Shown: positions 6,480 to 63,789, counted from the first letter of the stretch. The stretch is 64,000 bases of DNA from an uncultured delta proteobacterium (GCA_963712535.1 CAVQIK010000017.1:2451-66450), one strand, 5' to 3'. The notes: generated by a model from the letters alone, not told the origin. Numbers and translations are program-made.

Positions 6480-7385
6480 TTAGTTGAGTCTTCCTTCCTT
6501 CTTCAGCCGTCCCAGGATCTCGTTTATTTTGGGAAGGGCTTCGACAGCCGCTTTCTCTCCTTCCAGGATCGCCTCGTGTCTCTTGGAAAAATCGCTGGAA
6601 GCGATGTGGCCCACCCTGGGCCTCAGGAGGACGTCCGCCCTGGAGCACTGGAGGCTGACCAGCTGGGAGTACATGATGCTCACCGCCTGAAGGATGGTCT
6701 CCACGGTATTCTCCGGTTTCGGGCTCTCCAGGTCCGAGGAGATGTCGACCGCGATCACGACGTCCGCGCCGAATCTTCTTGCGGCATCCACCGGTACCGG
6801 GCTGACAACCCCCCCGTCCACATAGAAGCGGTCCCCGATTCTTACCGGCCGGAAGATTCCCGGGGTGGAGCAGCTCGCCCTCACCGCGGCTCCCGTGTTC
6901 CCTTTTCCAAAGACGACCTCCTGCCCGCTTTGAATGTCCGCGGCGACCGCGTAAAAGGGGATGTTCAACTTCTCGAGAGGAGTGTTCCTGACCGTCCTGT
7001 TCACATAGTCGGCGAGCCTGATCCCTTGAACAAAGCCGTTGTCCGGAATGATGTAATCGACAATGTCCCCTTTATCCACCGAAAGCGCCAGGCTCTGGAG
7101 CTGAAAAGCGTCGAGACCGTAAGCATAGAAACTGCCGACCAGGCTGCCGGCGCTCGTCCCCACGATCATGTGAATGGGGACTCTGTGAGACTCCAGGACT
7201 TTCAATACCCCGATATGGGCGAACCCCTTGGCTGCCCCTGCGCCCAGGACCAGTGCGATTCTGGCCGGCTTGGGTGGAGGAGGGGAAGGGAAAACCGGCG
7301 GGGGCTGAACCTCCCGGTGAGCGCAGGAGGCGAGGAGGAGAAGGGCGGATAAAGATAATAACTTTAGATTCTTGAACACGGTCAT
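6480..7385 (-). CDS. Patatin-like phospholipase (NTE family), lipoprotein
   Basis: GAGAAKG, GTSAG, DGG motifs; LLLASC lipobox. Confidence 0.92.
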   Translation of the reverse strand: MTVFKNLKLLSLSALLLLASCAHREVQPPPVFPSPPPPKPARIALVLGAGAAKGFAHIGVLKVLESHRVPIHMIVGTSAGSLVGSFYAYGLDAFQLQSLALSVDKGDIVDYIIPDNGFVQGIRLADYVNRTVRNTPLEKLNIPFYAVAADIQSGQEVVFGKGNTGAAVRASCSTPGIFRPVRIGDRFYVDGGVVSPVPVDAARRFGADVVIAVDISSDLESPKPENTVETILQAVSIMYSQLVSLQCSRADVLLRPRVGHIASSDFSKRHEAILEGEKAAVEALPKINEILGRLKKEGRLN

Positions 7386-30512: not shown

Positions 30513-33004
30513 TCATTTCTGGTCCAATACACGCCGCACGAGTTCGGCCCCCTCTCGCACGGTAAACGGCTTCATGATGTACCCCCGGAATCCCATAGCC
30601 GTGGCCTTTTCAGACGAAATCAAGTCACTGTATCCGGTGCACAGAATGACCGGAATATCAGGCCGCATGCGCATGAGCTCCTTTCCTAAATCCTCGCCGG
30701 TCATGAACGGCATCGTTTGATCCGTAATCACCAGGTCGAATTGAGAAGGATTTTCGGAGAAAAGTCTCAATGCCTCCTGACTGTCCATGAGCGCTGTAAC
30801 CTTGTATCCAAGATGTTGCAGCATATTCTGGACGGTTTTAATATTGAAATCCTCATCGTCCACCAGCAGGATCCGTTCATTTCCCCTGGGGATCGGTTTA
30901 GGGGTTTCTGGCGTCCACCGAAGTTCTGGTATCAACCTTGGGAAGATAAACTTTAAAAATGGAGCCTTTGCCCGGCTCACTGTAGACGGTGATGCCTCCC
31001 TTGTGATTCTTTACGATCCCATAGACTACCGATAGCCCAAGTCCCGTCCCTTCTCCGACCGGTTTCGTGGTGAAGAAAGGCTCAAAAATCCGTTTCTTAA
31101 CCTCTTCGTCCATACCGGACCCGGTATCCTTTACCGAAAGGACCAGGTAGTCTCCCGGTTGCATATCCGCCTCGGGCAGATCAGTCGAACCGAAGGTAAT
31201 GCCTTGAAGGGAGATGTCGATCGATCCCGTGGTTCCCCGCATGGCATAAGCCGCATTCGTGCAGAGATTCATGATCACTTGCTGGATCTGAGAAGGGTCA
31301 GCAGAAACTGCATCCGATTCCGTCTCCAGGATGAAGTTTCATTTGGATGGTGGTCGGAATGGAAGATCGCAGTAGTTTGAAAGTTTCTTTTATGAGGGGG
31401 GTCAAAGTCAAGACCTCTTGCTTCTTTTCGGACTTGCGGCTGAACAAAAGCATTTGCTTCACCAGGTCTTTGCCGCGCAGCCCAGATTTGAGAATCAGGT
31501 CCAGATTCGTGCGGACACCAGATCCCCCGGGGAGGTCAAAAAGAGCCATTTCTGAATTAATTACAATCGCCGCAAGGATGTTGTTGAAATCATGGGCGAT
31601 GCCCCCGGTCAGGGTGCCAATGGCCTCCAGCTTCTGAGCTTGGCGCAGTTGTTGCTCGGCTTTTTCGCGCCTGACCATTTCCTCTTGTAATTCCTTATTG
31701 ACTCTGGCCAGGTCAGCGGTCCGCTTCTGGACACGAATTTCCAACTCGTCACGGGATCTGCGAAGTTCCTCCTCTGCCCGCTTGCGCTCCATGATGTCGC
31801 GGCACAGCGCAAGAATCAACGGCGTTCCGTTTTTTTCCACTATCGTCGCATTGATCTCAACGGGAGTAATTGTGCCATATTTATCAATGTAATCGATTTG
31901 CAAATTCCTGATATATCCATCCCTGGCACACTTGGCGACGGCCTCTGCATTTTTCTCCTTCTCATAATCAGCGGTCCACTCAATGACAGTTCTGCCGCGT
32001 ATTTCGTCTAGACCGGTATGTCCGGTAAAGCGGACGTATTCCGCATTTGCATCAATAACCCTGCCTTCTGTATCGATAATCACATAGCCGGTATCAGTCG
32101 TTTCAACAAGAGTCCTGTATATACCCTCACTCTCGCGTAACATGTTCTCCGCCTTTTTGCGCTCGGTGATGTCAAAGAAGAAAGAGAGGATATACCGCTG
32201 GCCGTCCATGACGAACATTTCACCGCCCGCGACGGTGTTGATGAACTCCCCGTTCTTCTTCCTCAAGGTCAGCTCGACGTTCTCAAGATGACCCTTCTGA
32301 GCGAGCTCAGTGACCACGCGCTGGCGTTCCTCCGCCGAGGTCCAGATGTTCAGTTCCACCGTCGTCTTACCAATAAGCTCCTCCCGCGTGTATCCAACGA
32401 GTTTGGCGTAGGCCTCATTAGCGTCCACACATCTTCCATCCGCCCACCAACTTAGGATCGTCGCCGCCGGGTTTACCCGGAAGATGGAGGAGAACAACTG
32501 CTGCGACCGCTGCAAAGCCTCCTCTGTCCGCTTACGCTCGGTGATGTCGCGTACGACACTCACCCAACCAATTCGTTTGCCCTGATCATCTTCAAGAGGC
32601 ATCACGCTGTGGTTCGTAAAAAACACCTCGCCGTTCCTTCGCTTCATTTGAAACTCGGGCAGATCAAGACAGCCATTCTCCTCTACCGCGGCGAAAAGTC
32701 TCTTCCTAAACTCTTCCAACTTTTCTTCGTCAACGTGAAGGAAATTGGTCGTTTGACCTAACATTTCCTCTTTCCTGTATCCGAAAATCTGCGACGCAGC
32801 TGGGTTGCAGTTCAGAATCCGAGTAGTCTTTGCATCGAGGATGAAAACCGCCTCGCGCAAACTGGCAAAGGTCTTTTCTAATAATTGAAGGCTGTTCTTA
32901 TACTGACGGAAGAGTTGAGGGTCTTGCTTCATTAAACCTTCTCCGTCTGCGACTTCTTCCGCCCGCTGACGAAGCAATTTGGTATCGTGTTGTTCCCTTT
33001 TCAT
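30513..33004 (-). CDS. Hybrid sensor histidine kinase (3 PAS-HisKA-HATPase-REC), split by two frameshifts
   Basis: PAS/PAC repeats (DITERK), GGIAHDFNNIL, NLCTNA, DTGSGM, EPFFTTK, GTGLGL; receiver ILLVDDE/DQTMP/KP. Pieces are in ORFs 31298-33097, 30898-31278 and 30513-30980. Confidence 0.88.
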
Positions 33005-33571
33005 GCTTGGGGCGTCCGTTCCTATGAGCCCAGGTTTTTGGTACCAGGTTATGGAGGAAGATGGAATCAGGATACTCTCCCGCGAACGGACAATCAAGAG
33101 GGGAAAAAGCTACCCAGTTGTCCCCTTTCCCCCCGCTGCAATCAATGATTCCCCTTTGAACTATTGTATTCTGAAGAGAAAAAACAAAAACTCGACTTCA
33201 GGAAGGAAGGTTGCATGGGAACGGCCCAAAACCTCTCTAATACAGAGGTCCTCGGGGCAAGATTTTCTGGATTCACGCCGCCAAGACCGAGGAGTTCAAT
33301 TGATAATTCTCGGCTTCAAACGCCCTACCCTGGCAATCCCCAAAGTAATCCCTTAGACCACCTACTGACTTCCGGTCGTAAGCGTGAATTTTCCAGCGTG
33401 CCTCGAATGATGGAATCATGACCAAATGGAATAAAAAAATAGTCGTTCATCTGTTATTCCTTTCGTTAATTCTCCGCGCTCTCTGCGATCTCGGCGAGAT
33501 TCATTCTGAGGGGCATGGTTCCGCGCAGGAACTCATGCCCCTGCCTTCCCTAAGGTCTCCGGCGGAGGCGC

Positions 33572-45398: not shown

Positions 45399-45900
45399 GG
45401 GCATAAGCGCTAACTTAGGATTTTTTTCTTCAATTCCCCCCTTTGCAAAGGGGGGCCAGGGGGGATTTCTGCTGATAGGTTCTCTTTAAGGGTACGGTAG
45501 ATAACCTCCGCCACCGCCTCCCTTTCCTTCAGAACTTCTCTGCTGGTAAATCGCAAGACTTTGAACCCAAGAGAGGCCAAATAGTCATCGCGATTTTTAT
45601 CTTTCTTGGCTTGTTTTTCTTCCACGTGCTGTGATCCATCAACTTCTATGACCCACTTTGCCCGTGGCGCGAAGAAATCCACGATATATTCGCCAATGGG
45701 TTTCTGACGATAAAATTGGACACCAAGGACCTGTTTACTCCGCAATCCTGACCAAAGAGCTCTTTCGCTCTCTGTCAAATTACTTCGCAATTGGCGGGAT
45801 CTGGCTTTGAGATTTGCCCAGTACTTCAACACGGCTCGGCTCCCACTGAAAATCCCCCCTCCCCCTTTTTCAAAGGGGGGTTAAGTTAGCGCCTATGCCC
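45399..45900. mobile_element. 502-bp non-autonomous element carrying DUF559
   Basis: 19-bp TIR GGGCATAAGCGCTAACTTA / TAAGTTAGCGCCTATGCCC (18/19); 5-bp TSD GTCGA at 45394-98 and 45901-05. Confidence 0.85.
45410..45832 (-). CDS. DUF559 (Vsr-like PD-(D/E)xK) endonuclease domain protein
   Basis: LRSNLTESERALW..LR..Q..G.QFYRQKPIGEYIVDF..VIEVDGSQH..D..RD..L..GFKVLRF. Confidence 0.9.
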   Translation of the reverse strand: MLKYWANLKARSRQLRSNLTESERALWSGLRSKQVLGVQFYRQKPIGEYIVDFFAPRAKWVIEVDGSQHVEEKQAKKDKNRDDYLASLGFKVLRFTSREVLKEREAVAEVIYRTLKENLSAEIPPGPPLQRGELKKKILS

Positions 45901-53555: not shown

Positions 53556-54461
53556 ATGGAGAACCCGATTTACCCAAAGATTGCCGTGATCGTGAACTCC
53601 TCTTTGGGTTCGAAATCCTACCGAAATTTGAGCGCCGAAGGTCTTCGCGCGCTTCTTCCCAAAGACAAACCCATGGAAGTCACCATTGCGAACGGGAACG
53701 ATTTGAGGGAAATCACCCGGCGCCTGGCTTTATCCGGTGCCGACCGGATCGTGGCGGCCGGCGGAGACGGCACGGTCAGCGCCGTTGCCGGGGTCCTGGC
53801 CGGGAAAGACATCCCCATGGGCATCCTGCCGCTGGGCACCTTCAATCATTTCGCCCGGGATAATGGGATCCCTTTTGACTTGCCGTCGGCGATACGGACG
53901 GCGGCGGAAGGCCTGCCGCGCGCGGTCGACGTCGGGGAGGTAAACGGGCGCGTCTTCATCAACAGCTGCTCCGTGGGAATTTATCCGGCGGCGATCAAAC
54001 GGCGGGATGATTACATGAACCGCATGAGAGTGAGAAAACTCGTGGCCATGGCGCTCGGATTGGTCAGCGTCTTTCGCCGATTTTCCCCGTTTACGGTCAA
54101 ACTGGAGACGGAAACGGTAACGATCGAGCGAATCACTCCCTTCGTGTTCGTGGGAAACAACGCCTATTCTTTCGACCTGCTGAAACTGCTCCGGCGCTTC
54201 ACCCTCACCGGCGGGCAATTGGGCCTGTACACCTCCCATTGGAACGGAAGGTGGAGCATCCTCCGCCTCGCCTTAATGGCTATCCTCGGGCTTCTCCGGC
54301 AGGAGAAGGACTTTGAAATGTATGCCGCCGAGGAAGTCCGGCTGGAGACCCGCAGGACAAGGGTGAGGGTCGCCGCCGACGGCGAGATTTTTCACCTGGC
54401 CACCCCGCTGCATTTTCGAATCCGGCCCGGCGATCTCAAAGTCATCGTGCCTCCTGCCTGA
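53556..54461 (+). CDS. Diacylglycerol/sphingosine kinase family lipid kinase
   Basis: GGDGTV, LPLGTFNHFARD, VDVG, ADGE. Confidence 0.9.
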   Translation: MENPIYPKIAVIVNSSLGSKSYRNLSAEGLRALLPKDKPMEVTIANGNDLREITRRLALSGADRIVAAGGDGTVSAVAGVLAGKDIPMGILPLGTFNHFARDNGIPFDLPSAIRTAAEGLPRAVDVGEVNGRVFINSCSVGIYPAAIKRRDDYMNRMRVRKLVAMALGLVSVFRRFSPFTVKLETETVTIERITPFVFVGNNAYSFDLLKLLRRFTLTGGQLGLYTSHWNGRWSILRLALMAILGLLRQEKDFEMYAAEEVRLETRRTRVRVAADGEIFHLATPLHFRIRPGDLKVIVPPA

Positions 54462-54653: not shown

Positions 54654-55461
54654 ATGAAAACCATCGCCCACCTTTCCGACCTGCACTTCGGCGCCGAGGA
54701 TGAGAAGATCGCCCAAGCTCTGAAGGAGGAAGTTCTGCGCTCCGGGCCCGATCTGCTTGTAATCAGCGGGGACCTTACCCAGCGGGGCCGAAAAGGACAG
54801 TTCGCGGCCGCGAAAGAATACCTGGGCGGATTTCCGTTTCCCCGATTGATCGTTCCCGGAAATCACGATCTTCCTCTGGTGAACCTATTCCGCCGAAGCT
54901 TGTCGCCCCTGGCGCGCTATCGCCGCTATATCAGCAACGAACTGGACCCATTTTACCGCGACGACGAAATCGCGGTCTGCGGGGTGACTTCGCCGAGGCG
55001 GCTAAGCTGGAAATCGGGCAGGGTCTCGCTGGAGCAGATGGAAGGGATGAGGGAAAAGCTGTGCCCGCTTCCGGGTTCCGTCTTCAAAATGGTCGCGACC
55101 CATCACCCTTTCATCCCGCCGCCCGAGGATGAAGGCGTCAAAAGTGATCGGCCGTTCCTGGAGGGCCCTGGAGGTGATGGAGGAATGCGGGGTGGAACTC
55201 GTGCTCACCGGTCATCTCCACCACGAGTATTCCGGGGACATCCGGCCTTACTACCCGCAGGCCCGCCGCTCGATCATCGTGGTCCAGGCGGGGACCTCCA
55301 TCTCGACGAGAACTCGAGAACACCCCAACGGCTATAACCTGGTCCTTGTTTCTTTGGACCGGATTGACATCCAGGTGCGGGGATGGGACGGGAGCCGTTT
55401 CGAGGACGGTTTGAAGACCTCGTATGTCAAGGAGGGCCAGGAGTGGAAGCGGATGAAGTAA
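54654..55461 (+). CDS. Calcineurin-like metallophosphoesterase (frameshift ~55143)
   Basis: SDLHFG, SGDLT, PGNHD, THHP, then LTGHLH in the next frame. Confidence 0.87.
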
Positions 55462-55522: not shown

Positions 55523-55726
55523 TCAAAAGGACTTTGACCAGAGGACTTGGAGCGCGCTCCCCGCCGTGCCGTCCCGAAGGAAACCTGTGTCCCAGGCGTA
55601 TTCGATATAAATTTGAGAGTTCCAGAAGAAACCGGTGGTCAGGCCGATGGATGCGGCCTGGCCCGTCTTGCTCACGAACCCGATCTGGTTTGACGCAACT
55701 ATGGTTTCGCGGTCGGCCCATCTCAT
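55523..55726 (-). pseudogene. Probable C-terminal fragment of an outer-membrane beta-barrel protein
   Basis: Amphipathic strands QIYIEYAWD...LQVLWSKSF with terminal Phe; too short for a complete barrel. Confidence 0.4.
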
Positions 55727-56487
55727 GGCACATGCCCGAAACCGAGCAGCTTGTCAATCCGGCTGAACACATAGGAAAACCCGTGAACACTGGATGTTTT
55801 GTTCCCTTCGATGGTGTACAGCCAGCCATCTTTTACTTGATGGACCAAACCCACATGTCCCAGCCACCCCTCCAACTTTTCCCGCCACCAGACCACAATA
55901 TCTCCTGGCTTTGGCTCGTATCCGCTGTTCGGCGGGTATGCAAAACCTTTCTCTTTGAACTCCTGCAAAAGCGCCCTGGCCCCCGGGCAATAGGCAAAGG
56001 GCATGCTGCCTTGATCTCCCCCACTTGCCTGGAGGTAACACCAGCTTACGAAAGAGGCGCACCATGAATTCCCCTCCGGAAGTCCAACGGGAGCCAGATA
56101 TTTTTTCACCCAGGGACCGCAGTTGTCTCCTCCTATCTCGCAGGCTCCGGCATTGAGCTCGCGGATTGCGGTTTTCAACGCAGCCCGTCCCAAGATGCTG
56201 CCCCCTAGTTCGGGAGCAGGCATCTTTCCGAAATCGATTGGGCCTGGTGAGACAATCACCGGTTTTGGATGGGAGAGGCTCCACCAGGTGAGCGGCCCCA
56301 CCTTTCCGTCCACGACCAGCGGCTGTGCATGATCGTCGAGGTTCTGGGCCTGGAAAGCACGCACTGCCCGGTATGTCTGCAGTTCGAACTTGCCATCGAT
56401 ATCTACCGGATAGCCCCGCTTCACCAAAAGCTTCTGGACTTCGCGCACATCCGATCCTCTATCACCCCGTTTCAGAGTTCCCTGCAT
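55723..56487 (-). CDS. Peptidoglycan-binding domain + CHAP amidase
   Basis: LKRGDRGSDVREVQ..DGKF..AVRAFQ..DGKVGPLTW; WCASFVSW, PKPGDIV, GHVGLV, TIEGN. Confidence 0.9.
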   Translation of the reverse strand: MQGTLKRGDRGSDVREVQKLLVKRGYPVDIDGKFELQTYRAVRAFQAQNLDDHAQPLVVDGKVGPLTWWSLSHPKPVIVSPGPIDFGKMPAPELGGSILGRAALKTAIRELNAGACEIGGDNCGPWVKKYLAPVGLPEGNSWCASFVSWCYLQASGGDQGSMPFAYCPGARALLQEFKEKGFAYPPNSGYEPKPGDIVVWWREKLEGWLGHVGLVHQVKDGWLYTIEGNKTSSVHGFSYVFSRIDKLLGFGHVP

Positions 56488-56545: not shown

Positions 56546-56855
56546 GGATCATCTCCAATTTAGTTGATCGAATTCTTCTTGAAAACCTAACAAGGGTTCG
56601 GAAGGAAAGGCAAATTCCGACACAAGCATTGGCGGGATAAAGCTTCGGTACCAAGGACCGAATGGCTCTCCGCGATGCGCAGCGGGGGCCTGAACGGGCC
56701 TGCTTCGAAGGACAGAAGAACATCCCCGCCAGAACCATGAACGGATAGGTGCGTCATGATTGTGGCGGAATTTGCCTTTCCTTCCGGACCCCTGGAACCC
56801 CAGCACAATTTACCAGTCCCGCCGTATTTTCCTTCAACTAAATTGGAGAGGATCC
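56546..56855 (-). mobile_element. MITE family A, copy 4 (reverse orientation)
   Basis: TIRs; flanks TTTTTTCT / TTTTTTCC (7/8); closest to copy 2. Confidence 0.87.
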
Positions 56856-57099: not shown

Positions 57100-60000
57100 C
57101 TAGGCGATGCTGGTCAGAGCCACGAAATCACCCAGGCTGAGCTCATCTTCCGCTTCCAAACGGCGAATCAGGTCCTCGCGCTTTGGGGAACGCTCACTTT
57201 CGGTGCCGGAGGCCAGGCACAACTGGACGACCTGGAGGGCGGCACGCCAAACTGCCGTCTGACCCATTGGACGGTATCCTCGATCGCCTTCCCGTCGAGG
57301 GGTAGAGTCATGTGCTGCTCATTAACCTCGGTGCTCTGCGCCAGGAGCTTGCCCCCATTCAATGCGCTGTTGGCTGAAACCGTGCCGTCACCCGCGACAC
57401 ACCTCGAGTAATCCACGGTCCCGTCCTCCTGTACTTCCACCGCGCCGATGGTTTTCCTCGACGTGCAGACAATTGCGCGGGTGCGTTCCAGCATGGCCTG
57501 AGGCAGAGAACGCTCAAGGGTCAGCGGCGAGGTCAGTCGAGCGTCTCCGGGTGAAAGGCGCGAGAGCGGCCCCGGTTCGAAGACGGCGGGGTTGAGGAGT
57601 TTCTCCTGATCGACGGGCAGCAGGTCAAACAATCCCCTGAAGGTCTGGACCGTGTTCAGGATTTCCCGCGGCGACTTATGCCGCAGAATGTTCAGGAGAC
57701 ATAATTCCCTTTTTTCACCGCGCAGGGCCTGGAGCGCGCAGCCGGACCCGAGGAACGGGGTCCCTAAAAAGACGAGGGCCTTGACGGCGTCGAGCGCAGA
57801 GGTCTTCGCACCTCCCAGCTTCGTGAGGGCATCGGCCGCCACGAGCCCGCCCATGGAGTGGGCCACAAGGGCGATTTCTATGCCGGGGTTTTCACGGGTG
57901 AGGGCTTCGATTCGGTCGGCCAGGCCCTTGCCCAGATAGCGTATGGGCTGGCGCCAATCATAAGGGGCGTATTCAACCACGGGCCCGAATTCGTGCATCA
58001 ACGCCAGGGCCATTCGATCGAAGATGAGAGGTATGACCCCATAGGCTTCAATCTTAACCGAGGCGTCCGCGTCCGGTATGCGTTCGGCAGAAGTGACCGG
58101 TTCCACGCCGGCTTTTCCTCTCCCAGCGTCCCGAGGCGTCTCCCATTTGAGTTTCAGCGCGTCGAAATCATCGCCGAAGACCAGATTCCAGGGATCGAGC
58201 CACACTGCCCCCAGATTGCCCGAGCGGTCGTGGAGAAGCGACCCCATGATGCCCGGCAAAATCAGAATGCGACGCTCTTTACCCGGGAATCCGCCGCTTT
58301 TTGTCTCTCGCCCAGACTCGAACCGTTCACGGAGAGAGTCGAACCTGTCCAGATGGTCCGACAGGGATGCAACCATATCCTCGCAAGGGCCAAGGACCTC
58401 GCCGCGCAGATGGTCCATCCAACCCTCGCTTGCTTCCGACCGCACGGCAGCCAGAACACGCCGGGCATTGAATCGGTCCAGGGCGGATACGGGTGTCGGT
58501 TTCGGAAGGCTATCGACAACACGGGCAGCGAATGGCACGAGAGGATAGACTCTCCCCAGAAAATTTCCCCATTCCGTTTCCCTCGCGAAGTCTAAACTCA
58601 TGTACAAGGCATCCTTGCCTCCGGCCTTCTGGGGATTGAAGTTCCCGGGTGCATAGATCGTAAGCCCGCTTGCGCTCCCGCACGAGGCAATCACAGCCTT
58701 CTTGAGAGCCTTCCGGGCGCTGTTCGCCTCCTTGGACCCCTTGTCTTTGGGGTCTGCCGCAGCTTCGAGGAAAGAACCGAGATCGCAGTAGCCTTCATCA
58801 GGCCTCGGGCTGCAATCGATGGCGCAGCGGCGCACACGATGATAGGCAGCCGGTTCGGCCACTGTCGACCACGCCCGGACAGTCTCGGCGAGCAGCGGAA
58901 TCTGTTCCAGATCGATTGCGCTCAAGGTCATTTCGTCTTTGTACAGCTTCTTGAACGAGCCGACGATGCTCTTGACGAGCTCCTGGGGCGTTGTTTCGGG
59001 ATGAATGGGAAGACCCTGGAAAGCACGGCTGTACCACCAGCCGTCGCCGGGCTCGGTCCTTTCGCTCCCCACGAGGATGTTGGCGGCTCCTTGGATCTGG
59101 TACGCAATTTCGATCATGGCCATGAGACAGGCGTCGAACCCCAGGATATCGATCTTTCGGCCGAGGATCTCTTTTATTTGCAGCAGGGCCTTGCGGAGCT
59201 CGGCGTTGTCAAGGAAGTCTCTGGAGGTATCATCGTAGCCGTAGCCTCGCGTTGGGCCCTGTTCGAGGATGGCCCGTCTCGTGCCGCTGAAGAAACCGAG
59301 CCGCCTTTGGGCGAGCCGGGCAGCCGTCCGGGGGCTCATCGATCCACGAGCGGTGCGATAAACATCTTGATCGTCGTGACCGCTGCCGTGGCCCCAGAGC
59401 ACCAGGGCGTTCCGCTCCGCAGGGAAGAGGTGGTGAGCCCATTTGCACGAAGTCGACGAGAGTTTTGGTGCTCCCCGTGTTGAGTTCGCCGTTGAACCGC
59501 TCGATCCGGTCCGCATCGAGATCTGTTTCCTTCAGGAGACGGTACCGGTAGCTCGCGTTCCCGGTGGCATCGTCCGTCTGCACAATGAAATGGACGGAAT
59601 CCGTCGAGCCGACCTGCTTCATTTCCATGAGATCCTGGGAGATGGCGTACTCAATGCCGCGGGGGTTACGGTCATCCCCTGCCATGTAGACGAGTATGGC
59701 CCATTTCGCCGGTTGGGGCAGCGGGCTCAGGGGCTTCAGCACCTCGAACCGCCGATGAGGATTGGCCGAATACCCGGGGCTTGTTGCGGCCATTTCTTTC
59801 ATTCTCGCAACCCGTCGGTTTTGGATCTGCTCCAGCACCCGGGACAGAACGACTTCCCGGTCCCAGCGCACAGGGTCCGGCTTCGGCTTAATGGTCTTAT
59901 ATTTTTTCCCCGCGGCCTTATAGTCGAGGATGCCATGATCGATGTCCCAGCCGCCGGGGTGAACCTCCTTACTGCGTTTTTCGAAAGGGCCCAGTCTTCC

Positions 60001-60585
60001 GTCCCCGTCATGATTCCGCAGCCGATCGAATCCATCCTGTCCCAGGGCATTCCGCACAGCGTCGAGCATGCGGCGGGCATACACATAGGAAAGGGCAACG
60101 TCGGCGGCTTCAAAGTCGGGATTATTTGCCGCAGAGGCGTGCTCGCCGTTGGTGATCCCTTTGTGCACCGCCAGGTCTTCGATACCGTGGAGCGCGTACC
60201 CCAGCCAGTAGAGGGACAGACGCACGTTCCCCATCTGCAGGGCGGACGTGCATTTCTGAAACTGGGCATGGACCCATTTCACGTAATCGTCGATGGCTTT
60301 ATTGATGATCGCGGTGCGTTTCGCCGTGTCCGTTCCGCAGAGATCCGCCTTATCAGGCGTCTGGGCATGGGCCGGAACGGTCTCGAAATCGTAGAAATCC
60401 GGGTCCTGAGCGGCGTCACAAAGGATATCGACTGACTGAGCCGAGAACCCCATTTCTTCTGTGATCTTGCCGGTAACCTCCCAGTGCCCGATGTGCCCGT
60501 AGGGCGGGTAAATACCGCCCGATGGGAGCCTCGTCCCCGGGGCAGACTTGACCTTGAAATTCCAGTCTTTCGGTGATTTTTGCAT
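57100..60585 (-). CDS. Multidomain protein: Zn-PLC/S1-P1-like domain + clostripain (C11) peptidase + alpha/beta-hydrolase lipase (two apparent frameshifts)
   Basis: N-terminal H..DPD..H..LGYALHGIEDLAVH; C11 motifs YMAGDD, NTG, WGHGSG, FDACLM, GSE; lipase motifs PGIMGS, YDWR, AHSMGG, GTPFLGS, GDGTV. A one-base shift at ~59443 joins ORFs 59230-60585 and 57168-59516; a second near 57230 extends the frame to TAG at 57100. Confidence 0.78.
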
Positions 60586-60831
60586 GGTTGCCCTCCATTT
60601 CCTATGGAATATTCCTGCCCCCCGGCCTCTCTGTCAATTCAGGGCTTTCCCCTCCTACCGCGGTTCCGAATGTTACGACTTTCGAAAATTACCATTCAAC
60701 TGCCGGGGGGACAACACTTATCTTCAACCGGCAGTACGCCACTTTCATAACTCAGGATCAGGAAACAACTTTGACATTGCGATGCGGGATCCGGAACCTA
60801 AAAGGATCTCGCTCCCATACATTCTTCGCGC

Positions 60832-61211: not shown

Positions 61212-61466
61212 ATGATCATGAAAGACCAGGAATTGCTTGAGAGAATCACTATCGATCCTCAAGTCATGGTTGGTAAGCCCGTTATCCGGGGGACGAGGTT
61301 GACGGTTGAATATATTTTGAATCTTCTTGCCCATGGGGCAACGGCAAGCGACATCCTGACCGAGTATAATGCCCTGACTCAGGAAGATATTCAGGCGTGT
61401 ATTTTGTTCGCAACCAAGTCACTGGAAAATACCACCTTTATGCCGCTGGGACTGGAGACAACATAG
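61212..61466 (+). CDS. DUF433 antitoxin-like protein
   Basis: RITIDPQVMVGKPVIRGTRLTV..IL..Y..LT.EDI.A. Confidence 0.92.
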   Translation: MIMKDQELLERITIDPQVMVGKPVIRGTRLTVEYILNLLAHGATASDILTEYNALTQEDIQACILFATKSLENTTFMPLGLETT

Positions 61467-61820
61467 ATGCGGTTTCTGGTGGACGAATCCACAGGCCCGG
61501 CGGTCGCGGCATGGCTGCGTCAGAAAGGGCATGAAGTTTTTTCAGTTTACGATAATTCTCGCGGCATGGCGGATGAAGAGATCATTCGCAAAGCGTTCAG
61601 CGAAAATTGGATACTGATGACCAATGATAAGGATTTTGGAGAGAAGGTATACCGCGAAAAGCGGCCGCACAAGGGCATCGTCTTGCTGCGGCTTGAAGAC
61701 GAACGTGCATTAGTCAAAATAGAGATTGTGAAGCGACTCTTGGAACGCTACGCCGACGGACTGTCAGGTCGATTTGTGGTTGTCACCGAAAGCGGTGTTC
61801 GTTTTGCCCGCCCCTTGTAA
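61467..61820 (+). CDS. DUF5615 PIN-like (Mut7-C) toxin
   Basis: MRFLVDES..LRQKGHEV..DEEI..TNDKDFGE; directly abuts DUF433. Confidence 0.9.
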   Translation: MRFLVDESTGPAVAAWLRQKGHEVFSVYDNSRGMADEEIIRKAFSENWILMTNDKDFGEKVYREKRPHKGIVLLRLEDERALVKIEIVKRLLERYADGLSGRFVVVTESGVRFARPL

Positions 61821-61899: not shown

Positions 61900-62395
61900 C
61901 AGTTGCCAATTAAGAGTCTTAGAAGGCTGGCGTGAGATCATCGAATCCAAACCTCGCTTGACCCTGGCTCGCTTGATTGAACCTACCGTTCCCTGGCCCA
62001 GAATCTCCAACCCTTTACCAGGGCCGGTCAAGTCCTTGCTCATCGATGCAGACATTCTGCAAGAAGCCCGGTACATTCACTTAAACCCGCTGAGTATTCG
62101 AGAGGTCGTGGATCTCTCCACCGAGGCGAAGAGCATCTTCTCTTTAAATACCCCTGGAGCAGCGATCATGGGTACCATAGCCGAAGGAAGCGCAGGGATT
62201 TTCTTCGGGCGGGGGGAACTTTTGGTTTTTTGGTGGAAGGGACGGACAGGGCCGAAGGGCGTATGAACGCTTCGTAACGGAGGTCTGGAGCGGAAGGTGA
62301 CTAGCCCCTTGGCGAAAGGGGCGGGCCATTGGATCGTTGGGGAGGTGGTGTCTTTCCAAGGCCTAAAAGAGCGATTCTTGAAGAAATCGATACGG
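61900..62395 (+). pseudogene. Degraded RAYT/Y1 tyrosine transposase
   Basis: Across shifting frames: KSLLIDAD..ARYIHLNP; KYPWSS; GRRAYERFV..SPLAKG..IVGE. Confidence 0.7.
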
Positions 62396-62449
62396 CCGGA
62401 GAATGGGTCTTCAAACTTATGCGTCCTGGGAACCAACGTCCCGGCCGCA

Positions 62450-63329
62450 TTCATCGAGCACCGGATCGGGGACCGGCGCATCGTGCGGCTGATCCAGAAA
62501 TGGCTCAGGGCCGGTGTGCTGGAAGACGGGGAGCACACGCGCGGGGAGGTAGGAACGGTTCAGGGCGGAAGTATCAGCCCGCTGTTGGCCAATATCTATC
62601 TTCACTACGTGCTCGACCTGTGGGTCCAGCAATGGAGGACGAGGCGGGCGAAGGGCGATGTGATCATCGTGCGCTACGCCGACGACTTCATTGTGGGATT
62701 CGAGCATCGGTCGGAAGCCGAGCAGTTCCAAGAGCGATCTTCGGCAGCGGATGGCGAAGTTCGGACTGGAAGTGCACCCGGACAAGACCCGGCTGATCGA
62801 GTTTGGGCGGTTCGCCGCCCAGGATCGAGACCGCCGGGGCCGGGGGAAAGCCCGAGACCTTCAACTTCCTTGGTTTCACTCATAGCTGCGGGACCAACGA
62901 AGCGGGGAGGTTCGAGGTGCGGCGGCAGACGATGCGCCAGAAGTGGCAGGCCAAGCTGAAGGAAGTGTATGCGACGCTTCGGAGCAAAATGCATTCGCCG
63001 GTACCGGAGCAGGGGTGTTACCTGCAGGCGGTGATGCGCGGGCACATCGAGTATTACGGGGTGCCCGGGAACCGACCGTCGATCGCTGCCTTCCGCTTCC
63101 GTCTGGGCTGGCTCTGGTGGAAGGTGCTTCGGCGCCGAAGCCAGAGGACGACCGTCACGGCGGAACGGCTGTGCCGCTTGGTAGAGAGGTGGATTCCCGA
63201 GCCTTATCTCAGCCATCCCTTACTTTCCTAGAGGCCCGAGCGTCTGACCCGAGGCAGGAGCCGTATGAGGGAAAGCCTCACGTACGGATCTGTGCGGGGG
63301 GCGCCGGGCGACCGGCGTCCCTACCGCGA
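62450..63329 (+). mobile_element. 5'-truncated group II intron (RT/maturase 3' half + domains V-VI)
   Basis: HRIGDRRIVRLIQKWL, QGGSISPLLANIYLH, YADD, HPDKT, FLGFTH, domain X; two frameshifts; followed by DV/DVI. Confidence 0.9.
63258..63329 (+). ncRNA. Group II intron domains V and VI
   Basis: GAGCCGTATGAGGGAAAGCCTCACGTACGGATC (AGC triad, GAAA loop); DVI GGGGCGCCGG-GCGA-CCGGCGTCCCTACC with bulged A. Confidence 0.9.
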
Positions 63330-63789
63330 AGAATGACGTCCCTGCTTAGGAAGAGGGTTTTTTCCGCAAAGTTTTAATGAATAATGGGTAGGGAAGCGAT
63401 GAAGAGGTGGGGCGGGGGAACATAAGAAATTTTCAACCTGTCAGGGCAAACGTCCACTTCTTTAATCCTCCGCAATGCACGTTCTGCATGAACGTCCCCT
63501 TTCTCAGGCTGGGTCCACGCGACTGTTTTTCATTACCCCCTGAGGTGGTCTGCTAGATAGCCCCGGAATATTGGATGCGAAGTGGCCGAGCCATAAATAA
63601 CCTTCATCACACTTTCGCAACTGACGCTAACAAAATAGACCTGACCCCATCGTCAGAATGGAATAATATACCCTTATCCCCATTCAGGTCACAACCAGAA
63701 GTTTATGGAGGGGCTTTGAAAGAGCGCTAAGAAATGTGAGGGAAACAGCGGGTCGGAGATGGAGAGTTGAGGGTAGGAGCGCAGGGCAG

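Follow-up and report, generated by a model that had tools for sequence, protein, structure and literature searches.

Does positions 57,100 to 60,585 of a contig from an uncultured delta proteobacterium encode a single protein that joins a protease to two other degradative enzymes, and what might such a protein be for? The locus lies on the minus strand of a 64,000-nucleotide stretch of DNA (GCA_963712535.1 CAVQIK010000017.1:2451-66450), the whole of which is referred to here as the window. The initial annotation, made from the sequence alone, had read the locus as one protein of about 1160 amino acids (aa) without a signal peptide, recovered by correcting a one-base shift and composed of a His/Asp metal-binding N-domain resembling phospholipase C (PLC) and S1-P1 nucleases, a clostripain-type (C11) protease and a lipase with the motif AHSMGG. 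We found a single gene of 1161 codons plus a stop codon (57100-57102), which is spread over three frames by two single-base insertions or deletions (indels). An intact homologue of exactly this length, P0001, exists, and the catalytic residues predicted for all three enzymes are present in the window.

The gene and its two frameshifts

The first frame (60585..59230, minus strand, 451 aa) is homologous through ...TLVDFV (380 aa), and the second (59516..57168, minus strand, 782 aa) is homologous from KWAHHLFP through ...VPQS (755 aa). The third frame (57267..57100, minus strand, 55 aa) holds the final 25 codons (EDLIRRLEAEDELSLGDFVALTSIA), and the 25 residues that it encodes are of the P0001 type (EDLIRRLE...). 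In BLASTP comparisons with P0001, the first frame was 89% identical over residues 1-380 and the second 88% identical over residues 370-1135. The 380-, 755- and 25-codon segments contain no internal stops, and the His/Asp cluster, LWGHGSG, GFDACLM and AHSMGG were all found in the window frames. Position 60585 is the first start codon downstream of an in-frame stop; because the start follows this stop and the N-terminus encoded from it is hydrophilic, the window protein has no signal peptide. One protein of about 1160 aa without a signal peptide is thus what the locus encodes, as the initial annotation had it. The shift that it described, within the C11 domain, corresponds to base 59445, which is one too many; a second shift, at 57180/57179, had gone undescribed although it lies within the coordinates given.

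As a check on the frameshifts, the window was compared with contigs from four public metagenome runs (X1, X2, X3 and X5) belonging to four studies; these contigs are 90-99% like the window and represent related strains, not the same DNA. An extra base behind 57179 was found in contigs of all three covering runs (X1, X2 and X5), and the base at 59445 was absent in both informative runs (X2 and X5); at this second position the X1 contig ends exactly and X3 gives no cover. X1 and X3 leave parts of the gene stretch uncovered, and these gaps were not used. Both contig differences keep the frame open and yield residues found in P0001. The window's assembly (5.95 Mb, 22 contigs, completeness 75.55%) was also broken in four of seven housekeeping genes: rpoC is spread over two frames, secA is divided in two and reads through two TGA codons, uvrA has six fragments in three frames and valS has five, while rpoB, dnaE and gyrA are intact. 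These genes hold at least 11 frame changes in ~21.6 kb, which is the same density as two in a 3.5-kb gene. Since the contigs of other metagenomes lack both indels and essential genes are broken at equal density, both indels are almost certainly consensus errors of the assembly, and the organism has an intact gene.

The alternative that the initial annotation had itself raised is a decaying pseudogene, in which both frameshifts are real lesions and the organism makes no full-length protein. It could draw on the facts that neither indel lies within a long homopolymer, that the indel-free contigs differ by 1-10% from the window and hence come from other strains, and that the gene adjoins the remains of mobile elements. 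A pseudogene would, however, leave unexplained why an equal indel density breaks the essential rpoC, secA and valS, and also uvrA, why none of the three segments holds a stop or any further lesion, and why identity to P0001 is 88-89% throughout with every catalytic residue kept. We regard decay as highly improbable. Gene calls of the window's genome are widely broken by assembly indels, and its apparent pseudogenes are untrustworthy.

Elsewhere in the same assembly, another valS-like (aminoacyl-tRNA synthetase) locus (C10:351272-353570) is likewise split into five, and contigs C4, C7 and C10 are rich in indels outside the window.

The three enzymatic domains

We searched for relatives with the 782-aa fragment, using a word index and scoring 8000 candidates, of which 320 proteins matched at E ≤ 0.001. 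Among the 120 matches listed, at least 57 are full-length relatives (1081-1199 aa, 87-98% query cover). All 57 contain Peptidase_C11, and all but P0042 and P0047 have an LCAT-type Pfam match. An alignment of 52 of them (P0008, P0010, P0018, P0031 and P0037 were left out) falls into two clades with 60-88% and 40-45% identity to P0001, and none of the 52 has a signal peptide. The gene belongs to a conserved, uncharacterised family, the members of which are named in their sources as 'Clostripain family protein', 'alpha/beta fold hydrolase' or 'pimeloyl-ACP methyl ester carboxylesterase'; names such as the last are misleading and concern about 57 relatives.

The central domain matches Pfam Peptidase_C11 (PF03415) with 102.3 bits in the window fragment and 135.2 bits in P0001 (cut-off 25.8), as do all 37 relatives that were scanned, and C11 chains of the PDB were matched with E values down to 7e-23. 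In the HMMER alignment, the His of LWGHGSG and the Cys of GFDACLM coincide with the catalytic dyads of 6mzo, 6n9j and clostripain 9cip. Both residues are invariant in the 52 homologues and present in the window, and Asp484 and Arg413 are invariant across the aligned family. A report on PmC11 (PMC4850288) places the S1 Asp two residues before the catalytic Cys, and states that the full activity of PmC11 requires a self-cut at Lys147 and that clostripain cuts itself at Arg181 and Arg190, of which Arg190 aligns with PmC11 Lys147. Arg413 (YRxxRG) lies 14 positions beyond the catalytic His, and its counterpart in clostripain is residue 190. It starts a loop in P0001 (residues 398-458) for which the full-length model has a predicted local distance difference test score (pLDDT) below 50, as would be expected of an exposed activation loop. 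Judged by its sequence, the C11 module is a clan CD cysteine protease predicted to cut after Arg or Lys. It has the dyad, the S1 Asp and the basic residue 14 positions after the His in common with clostripain and PmC11 (MEROPS C11, clan CD), and differs from them in that it is flanked on both sides by other enzymes, within a 1161-aa protein that has no signal peptide, and in that its His-to-Cys segment of ~87 residues is Arg-rich and strongly conserved.

The C-terminal domain matches Pfam LCAT (PF02450) with 36.4 bits in the window and 41.7 bits in P0001 (cut-off 21), all 37 scanned relatives match above the cut-off, and the family profile matches the LPLA2 structure 4x90 (E 3e-9) and LCAT structures. 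S910, D1066 and H1091 are kept without exception by 37 homologues and are nearly invariant in the 52-sequence set, where P0039 is scrambled at its C-terminus; the Asp and His of this triad are assigned by motif and not by structural superposition. The domain is predicted to be an LCAT/LPLA2-like serine (phospho)lipase with a Ser-Asp-His triad. The GxSxG elbow (AHSMGG), the Asp of GDGTV and the His are also found in LCAT, LPLA2 and the DUF676/PGAP1-like lipases. Unlike LCAT and LPLA2, with which it aligns by sequence in the nucleophile region only (profile positions 852-962), the family's lipase is joined to a protease and is followed by a conserved ~26-residue tail, acidic and then hydrophobic, that is present in both clades. 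Between the protease and the lipase, the inter-domain region (aa 682-770) is bordered by variable linkers of low model confidence.

For the N-domain, a HMMER scan of 1.84 billion representatives gave 255 homologues at E ≤ 0.001, and 40 of these, hand-picked across length classes, were scanned for domains. The cut-off of Pfam Zn_dep_PLPC (PF00882) was passed by six of the 40 (28.3-39.1 bits), and another five gave matches short of the cut-off. In an alignment of 31 diverse homologues, PF00882-positive ones among them, H34, D63, H73, H133, D137, H141, H149 and D157 do not vary. This set of five His and three Asp has the number and order of the side-chain ligands in the superfamily's trinuclear site; the proposed one-to-one match to the ligands of B. 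cereus PLC is based on that order and on the ranges aligned by VIA-align. For window residues 1-290, an AlphaFold model had a pLDDT of 83, with residues 1-31, which carry a conserved K/R19-LPSGG, disordered. When VIA-align was run against 48161 chains, the six best all belonged to the PLC/S1-P1 superfamily (135-144 residues aligned, root-mean-square deviation 3.2-4.6): three zinc-dependent phospholipases C (Zn-PLCs) with Z scores of 9.1, 8.4 and 8.0, and three S1/P1-type nucleases with 6.3, 6.0 and 5.5. The next row, which is unrelated, had a Z score of 4.7. The family profile run against solved structures matched C11 and lipase chains only, leaving the N-domain unmatched at E ≤ 1. A protein atlas, using features only, placed P0001 residues 1-270 near Zn_dep_PLPC (12% of one cluster), VWA7_N and Het-C clusters with scores of 0.89-0.93, which we treat as leads only.

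On its invariant residues and its model, the N-domain belongs to the PLC/S1-P1 superfamily, nearer the PLCs, and is predicted to be a divergent trinuclear-metal phosphodiesterase. It has the all-helical fold and the eight His/Asp positions, in the expected ligand order, in common with the Zn-PLCs (B. cereus PC-PLC, Listeria PlcB and the N-domain of clostridial alpha-toxin) and with S1/P1 nucleases. It differs from the Zn-PLCs in scoring below the Pfam cut-off, in the compact spacing of the last ligands, in having no signal peptide and an internal Tyr29, and in ~80 extra residues after the core (aa 185-265). The three domain assignments of the initial annotation were therefore borne out by fold, eight invariant positions and PF00882-positive homologues for the N-domain, which had been the weakest of the three, by the LCAT match and the invariant triad for the lipase, and by an intact His/Cys dyad for the protease, to which the S1 Asp and the Arg at the processing site can be added. 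The coordinates of the features are collected in Table 1.

Table 1. Positions of the gene, its predicted domains, catalytic residues and frameshifts in the window
Feature	Position	Strand	Remarks
Whole gene	57100..60585	-	1161 codons + stop; intact homologue P0001, 88-89% identity
Sigma-70-like promoter match, TTGACA-18-AATATT, 10/12	60608..60637	-	just 5' of the start codon; consensus match only, in a region that gave 4 sites against 1.7 expected
N-domain, aa 1-265, predicted divergent Zn-phospholipase C / S1-P1 nuclease fold	59791..60585	-
Peptidase C11 (clostripain) domain, aa 294-681	58542..59706	-	Pfam and PDB C11 chains
Frameshift 1, one surplus base (c on minus strand)	59445	-	between V380 and K381, inside C11
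C11 catalytic His399 (LWGHGSG)	59388..59390	-
Arg413 (YRTARG), putative self-processing site	59346..59348	-	alignment to clostripain Arg190
S1-pocket Asp484 and catalytic Cys486 (GFDACLM)	59127..59135	-
Helical inter-domain region, aa 682-770	58275..58541	-	LDRxNAR and WxDRLR motifs conserved
LCAT/LPLA2-like alpha/beta-hydrolase (lipase) domain, aa 771-1112	57249..58274	-
Lipase Ser910 (AHSMGG)	57855-57857	-
Lipase Asp1066 (GDGTV)	57387-57389	-
Lipase His1091 (HMTLP)	57312-57314	-
Frameshift 2, one base missing between the two positions	57179..57180	-	codon 1136, 26 codons before the stop
Conserved C-terminal tail	57103..57179	-	acidic helix, then hydrophobic end; both clades

Protease fusions and the possible role of the protein

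Among the 40 scanned N-domain homologues, five (P0168, P0201, P0214, P0216 and P0248; 633-684 aa) have a caspase domain (Peptidase_C14) followed by the PLC-like domain, and four (P0133, P0140, P0147 and P0160; 465-507 aa) have Transglut_core followed by the PLC-like domain. These fusions are uncharacterised; the C14-PLC type bears signal peptides, whereas the transglutaminase-PLC type does not. The PLC-like domain is thus fused to three cysteine-protease families (C11, C14 and transglutaminase-like), and CHAT proteases occur as fusion partners of the lipase type; the C14, transglutaminase-like and CHAT fusions are new here. P0097 holds LCAT and CHAT in one protein, and the N-terminal part of a CHAT protein from Rhizobium leguminosarum matches the family's lipase region, residues 694-1108. 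The recurrent fusions give indirect support to the view that the protease may control the flanking enzymes. Since both of these enzymes independently adjoin cysteine proteases, the fusions provide our strongest evidence for an action of the protease on them, and with three cysteine-protease families involved the coupling becomes directly testable with simple mutants.

Two further arrangements involve the same domain types. In Acidobacteriota metagenome-assembled genomes (MAGs), at L027:6560-16628 and L028, a TPR/PASTA protein precedes a 1542-aa protein ending in C11, which is followed by a 1812-aa DUF7379-LCAT-CHAT-TPR-S protein; this resembles a large locus of the conflict type, in which two clan CD proteases accompany a lipase of the same kind. 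On the R. leguminosarum plasmid NZ_CP071627.1 (L093, 5908-11370), the gene for the CHAT protein is followed by SIR2-family and then DNA/RNA non-specific endonuclease genes. The CHAT/caspase-type conflict proteins of multicellular bacteria resemble the family in that its lipase relatives are joined with CHAT and TPR-S (L027), but the family differs from them in having no nucleoside triphosphatase (NTPase), TPR or other sensor domain. A term search of the main text of Kaur et al. 2020 (PMC7159879) found no occurrence of clostripain, LCAT or lipase, 'phospholipase C' was absent from the orthocaspase/metacaspase papers listed by a literature search, and no description of the three-enzyme architecture was found in open-access text, with subscription journals outside this coverage.

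We tentatively read the protein as a protease-gated lipolytic zymogen used in conflict, leaning towards a cytoplasmic role in cell suicide or in a damage response, and we give this reading somewhat less than an even chance. The C11 module would first cut its own activation loop at Arg413 and would then trim or separate the two enzymes beside it at flexible linkers rich in basic residues (aa ~266-292 and ~748-770). These enzymes would then attack membrane phospholipid at its phosphodiester and acyl-ester bonds. The observed basis is a single gene with its architecture and catalytic residues, a clostripain-type activation site by alignment, and the recurrent protease fusions; from these we infer self-cleavage, lipid substrates, a trigger and the biological role, in the own cell or after export. 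We lean towards the cytoplasm because the 52 homologues have no signal peptide, trafficking domains are lacking and no immunity gene is conserved. By Pfam, none of 37 members has a PAAR, VgrG, Rhs, LXG or RTX domain, and Tle3 matches two of the 37 weakly (E 0.0063).

A comparable logic is known from the MARTX and large clostridial toxins, in which an internal clan CD protease frees effector domains, those of MARTX including an alpha/beta-hydrolase phospholipase. In both cases a clan CD protease sits among effector enzymes in one polypeptide. We claim no homology: the protease here is C11 and not C80, the protein is far smaller, and it has neither repeat or translocation regions nor nearby secretion genes. 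If the protease gates both lipid hydrolases, the gene would encode a compact single-gene device for membrane destruction based on the caspase clan, a bacterial counterpart of protease-activated death effectors. The family would likewise represent a new activation route for Zn-PLCs, whose known members are secreted virulence enzymes.

Several findings weigh against this reading. The N-domain misses the Zn_dep_PLPC cut-off (16.3 against 26.8 bits) and the domain matches only seven of 37 relatives, all weakly (best E 0.0073). Foldseek with the N-domain model returned nothing at E ≤ 0.001, its top rank being alpha-toxins at E 0.1-0.4; the VIA-align Z scores of 8-9 are modest for a helical fold; and PLC and nuclease are indistinguishable by sequence. 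Canonical Zn-PLCs need a free N-terminal Trp, the amine of which binds metal. The family protein as encoded has no such residue: the aligned aromatic, Tyr29, which is Trp in some relatives and aligns with the Trp of signal-peptide-bearing homologues, is internal, with 28 residues before it unless later processing removes them. It is for this reason that we file the domain under the superfamily and not under PF00882 itself. Tyr29 is also preceded by Pro-Pro, which is no cut site for an Arg/Lys-specific protease. Most other PLC-like homologues, the C14 fusions included, bear signal peptides, and the invariant tail at the extreme C-terminus may serve as an export signal; both points speak for an exported enzyme. 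The protein has no sensor domain, and no partner is conserved in 10 loci, which leaves its trigger without a candidate. PADLOC-DB 2.0 gave no family at E ≤ 0.01 for P0001 or for either window fragment, and the absence of a full-length copy from the genomes of 40 relatives shows accessory status, not its cause.

We also considered a C11 cut after K/R19, a basic residue that is near-invariant in the C11-fused family, as a means of making the metal-binding N-terminus. Tyr29 lies ten residues further on, after Pro-Pro, and this route is kept as a weak possibility.

If the protein were instead an exported toxin or lytic exoenzyme, it would leave the cell by a non-Sec exit (a type I-like tail signal, vesicles or lysis) and process itself outside or in the target cell, setting free two enzymes that attack membranes, in the manner of the MARTX and large clostridial toxins. 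The Zn-PLC relatives are typically secreted, with signal peptides on the PF00882-positive homologues as well as on the C14-PLC fusions, the acidic-then-hydrophobic tail at the extreme C-terminus is conserved in both clades, and the hosts include predatory or surface-attached lineages (Myxococcota and Planctomycetota). A zymogen, moreover, needs no immunity gene, which is consistent with the lack of a conserved neighbour. Against this stand the signal peptides found in none of the 52 aligned homologues, the missing trafficking domains with their two weak Tle3 matches, and the 10 loci, in which no transporter gene is conserved beside the gene; that the tail looks like a type I signal is our impression only. 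Export is, on balance, somewhat unlikely. An anti-phage effector acting by abortive infection, in which infection triggers C11, the hydrolases are freed and the cell dies before phage release, would fit an accessory and patchy gene that in the window adjoins a toxin-antitoxin-like pair and an intron, and it would fit the recurrence of joins between clan CD proteases and effectors in conflict loci (L027, and the Rhizobium lipase-CHAT protein beside SIR2 and an endonuclease). We nevertheless consider it quite unlikely, given that the protein itself has no PADLOC match, that only eight of 139 neighbouring open reading frames (ORFs) in the 10 loci do, all of them generic (radical SAM, ATPase, cyclase, kinase) and with no shared system, that the window neighbours are mostly metabolic, that Pfam finds no sensor or NTPase domain, and that none of 73 matching PLSDB plasmid records covers ≥80% of the gene.

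The protein might also be a housekeeping enzyme of lipid or protein turnover, for example in membrane remodelling, its protease serving for maturation or quality control. The gene lies in ordinary, variable neighbourhoods, the window has a diacylglycerol-kinase-like gene and a metallophosphoesterase, and the length and architecture of the family are stable, all of which such a role would accommodate. The lack of a full-length copy in 40 relatives' genomes is unlike a housekeeping function, however, and we know of no lipid housekeeping in which three degradative enzymes are joined behind a zymogen-type protease. We think this role very unlikely.

The protease-gated zymogen that we favour may be one case of something wider. 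Bacteria may repeatedly have built Zn-PLC zymogens gated by a protease in cis, by joining one divergent PLC-like domain independently to C11, C14 and transglutaminase-like proteases, of which the C11 and LCAT version would be a sensor-less executioner of cell death that dissolves the cell's own membrane, cued for example by Ca2+ entry on envelope damage; we put this forward as a conjecture that is unlikely as a whole. In a report on Listeria (PMC10576769), PC-PLC is described as an inactive proenzyme from which the protease Mpl removes a 26-residue N-terminal propeptide, and as switched off by even one residue added before Trp1; it is a precedent for the zymogen reading that we favour. Fusions of the kind conjectured would do in cis what Mpl does for PlcB in trans.

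Distribution and genomic context

A scan of species-representative genomes gave 10 full-length loci, in four Syntrophorhabdus MAGs, three 'delta proteobacterium' MAGs and one each of Planctomycetota, Myxococcota and Polyangiaceae. Because no full-length copy was found in 40 relatives' genomes of the window's genome, which hold at most a C11-only match, the gene is accessory, and it is patchily distributed. The window's genome itself has one C11-only paralogue (38% identity).

No neighbour is conserved across the 10 full-length loci; the sole shared neighbours are those of L017-L020, which are close relatives, and one pair common to L015 and L018. The defence-island context proposed in the initial annotation is not supported, with no conserved neighbour and only generic PADLOC matches. 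Its toxin-antitoxin genes and mobile debris do lie next to the gene, as a DUF433/DUF5615 pair and an intron, but they are peculiar to this window. The remaining window neighbours are mostly metabolic genes, the window has no tRNA genes, and a search for the flanking repeats of a mobile cassette found only short, chance-like repeats bracketing the gene.

In three closely related loci of Syntrophorhabdus type, L017 (7944-9005), L018 (13786-14856) and L019 (13640-14722), a radical SAM + SPASM protein is encoded 3' of the gene on the same strand and matches PADLOC pVip at E 1e-20 to 1e-23. We rejected an identity as pVip: the scores are modest, the gene is absent from that position in L020, and the similarity is probably that of radical SAM proteins in general.

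Directly 3' of the gene in the window, on the same strand, lies a gene for an endolysin-like PG_binding_1 + CHAP protein without a signal peptide (55723-56487, minus strand), which is not conserved beside the gene in the other 10 loci. On the opposite side, DUF433 (84 aa) and DUF5615/PIN-like (117 aa) genes abut head to tail (61212-61820, plus strand) and look like a type II toxin-antitoxin module; neither protein matches PADLOC. They are followed by the remains of a group II intron, with reverse-transcriptase pieces at 62297-62959 and 62803-63231 (plus strand), split over at least two frames, and then an Rfam Intron_gpII match at 63256-63330 (46.5 bits).

Other genes of the window are split as well. 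A histidine kinase is divided into separate ORFs with PAS/HisKA (31298-33097, minus strand) and HATPase_c (30898-31278, minus strand), most likely by an assembly indel, and is followed by a response regulator (30513-30980). A calcineurin-like metallophosphoesterase is split into the overlapping frames 54654-55337 and 55129-55461 (plus strand) and is adjoined by the diacylglycerol-kinase-like gene (53556-54461).

A patatin-like phospholipase (6480-7385, minus strand) gave weak matches to PADLOC 'phospholipase effector' (E 2.5e-5), and a DUF559 endonuclease-like protein (45410-45832, minus strand) gave a partial match to DpdF (E 4.7e-10); each gene is isolated among metabolic genes. In the low-GC spacer 3' of the gene there is a palindromic element of ~310 bp (56546-56855) made of two nested inverted repeats, one with 39-nt arms that are 90% complementary (56591-56629 / 56756-56794) and one with 27-nt arms that are 89% complementary (56546-56572 / 56829-56855). 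A miniature mobile element and a large hairpin are both possible readings of it.

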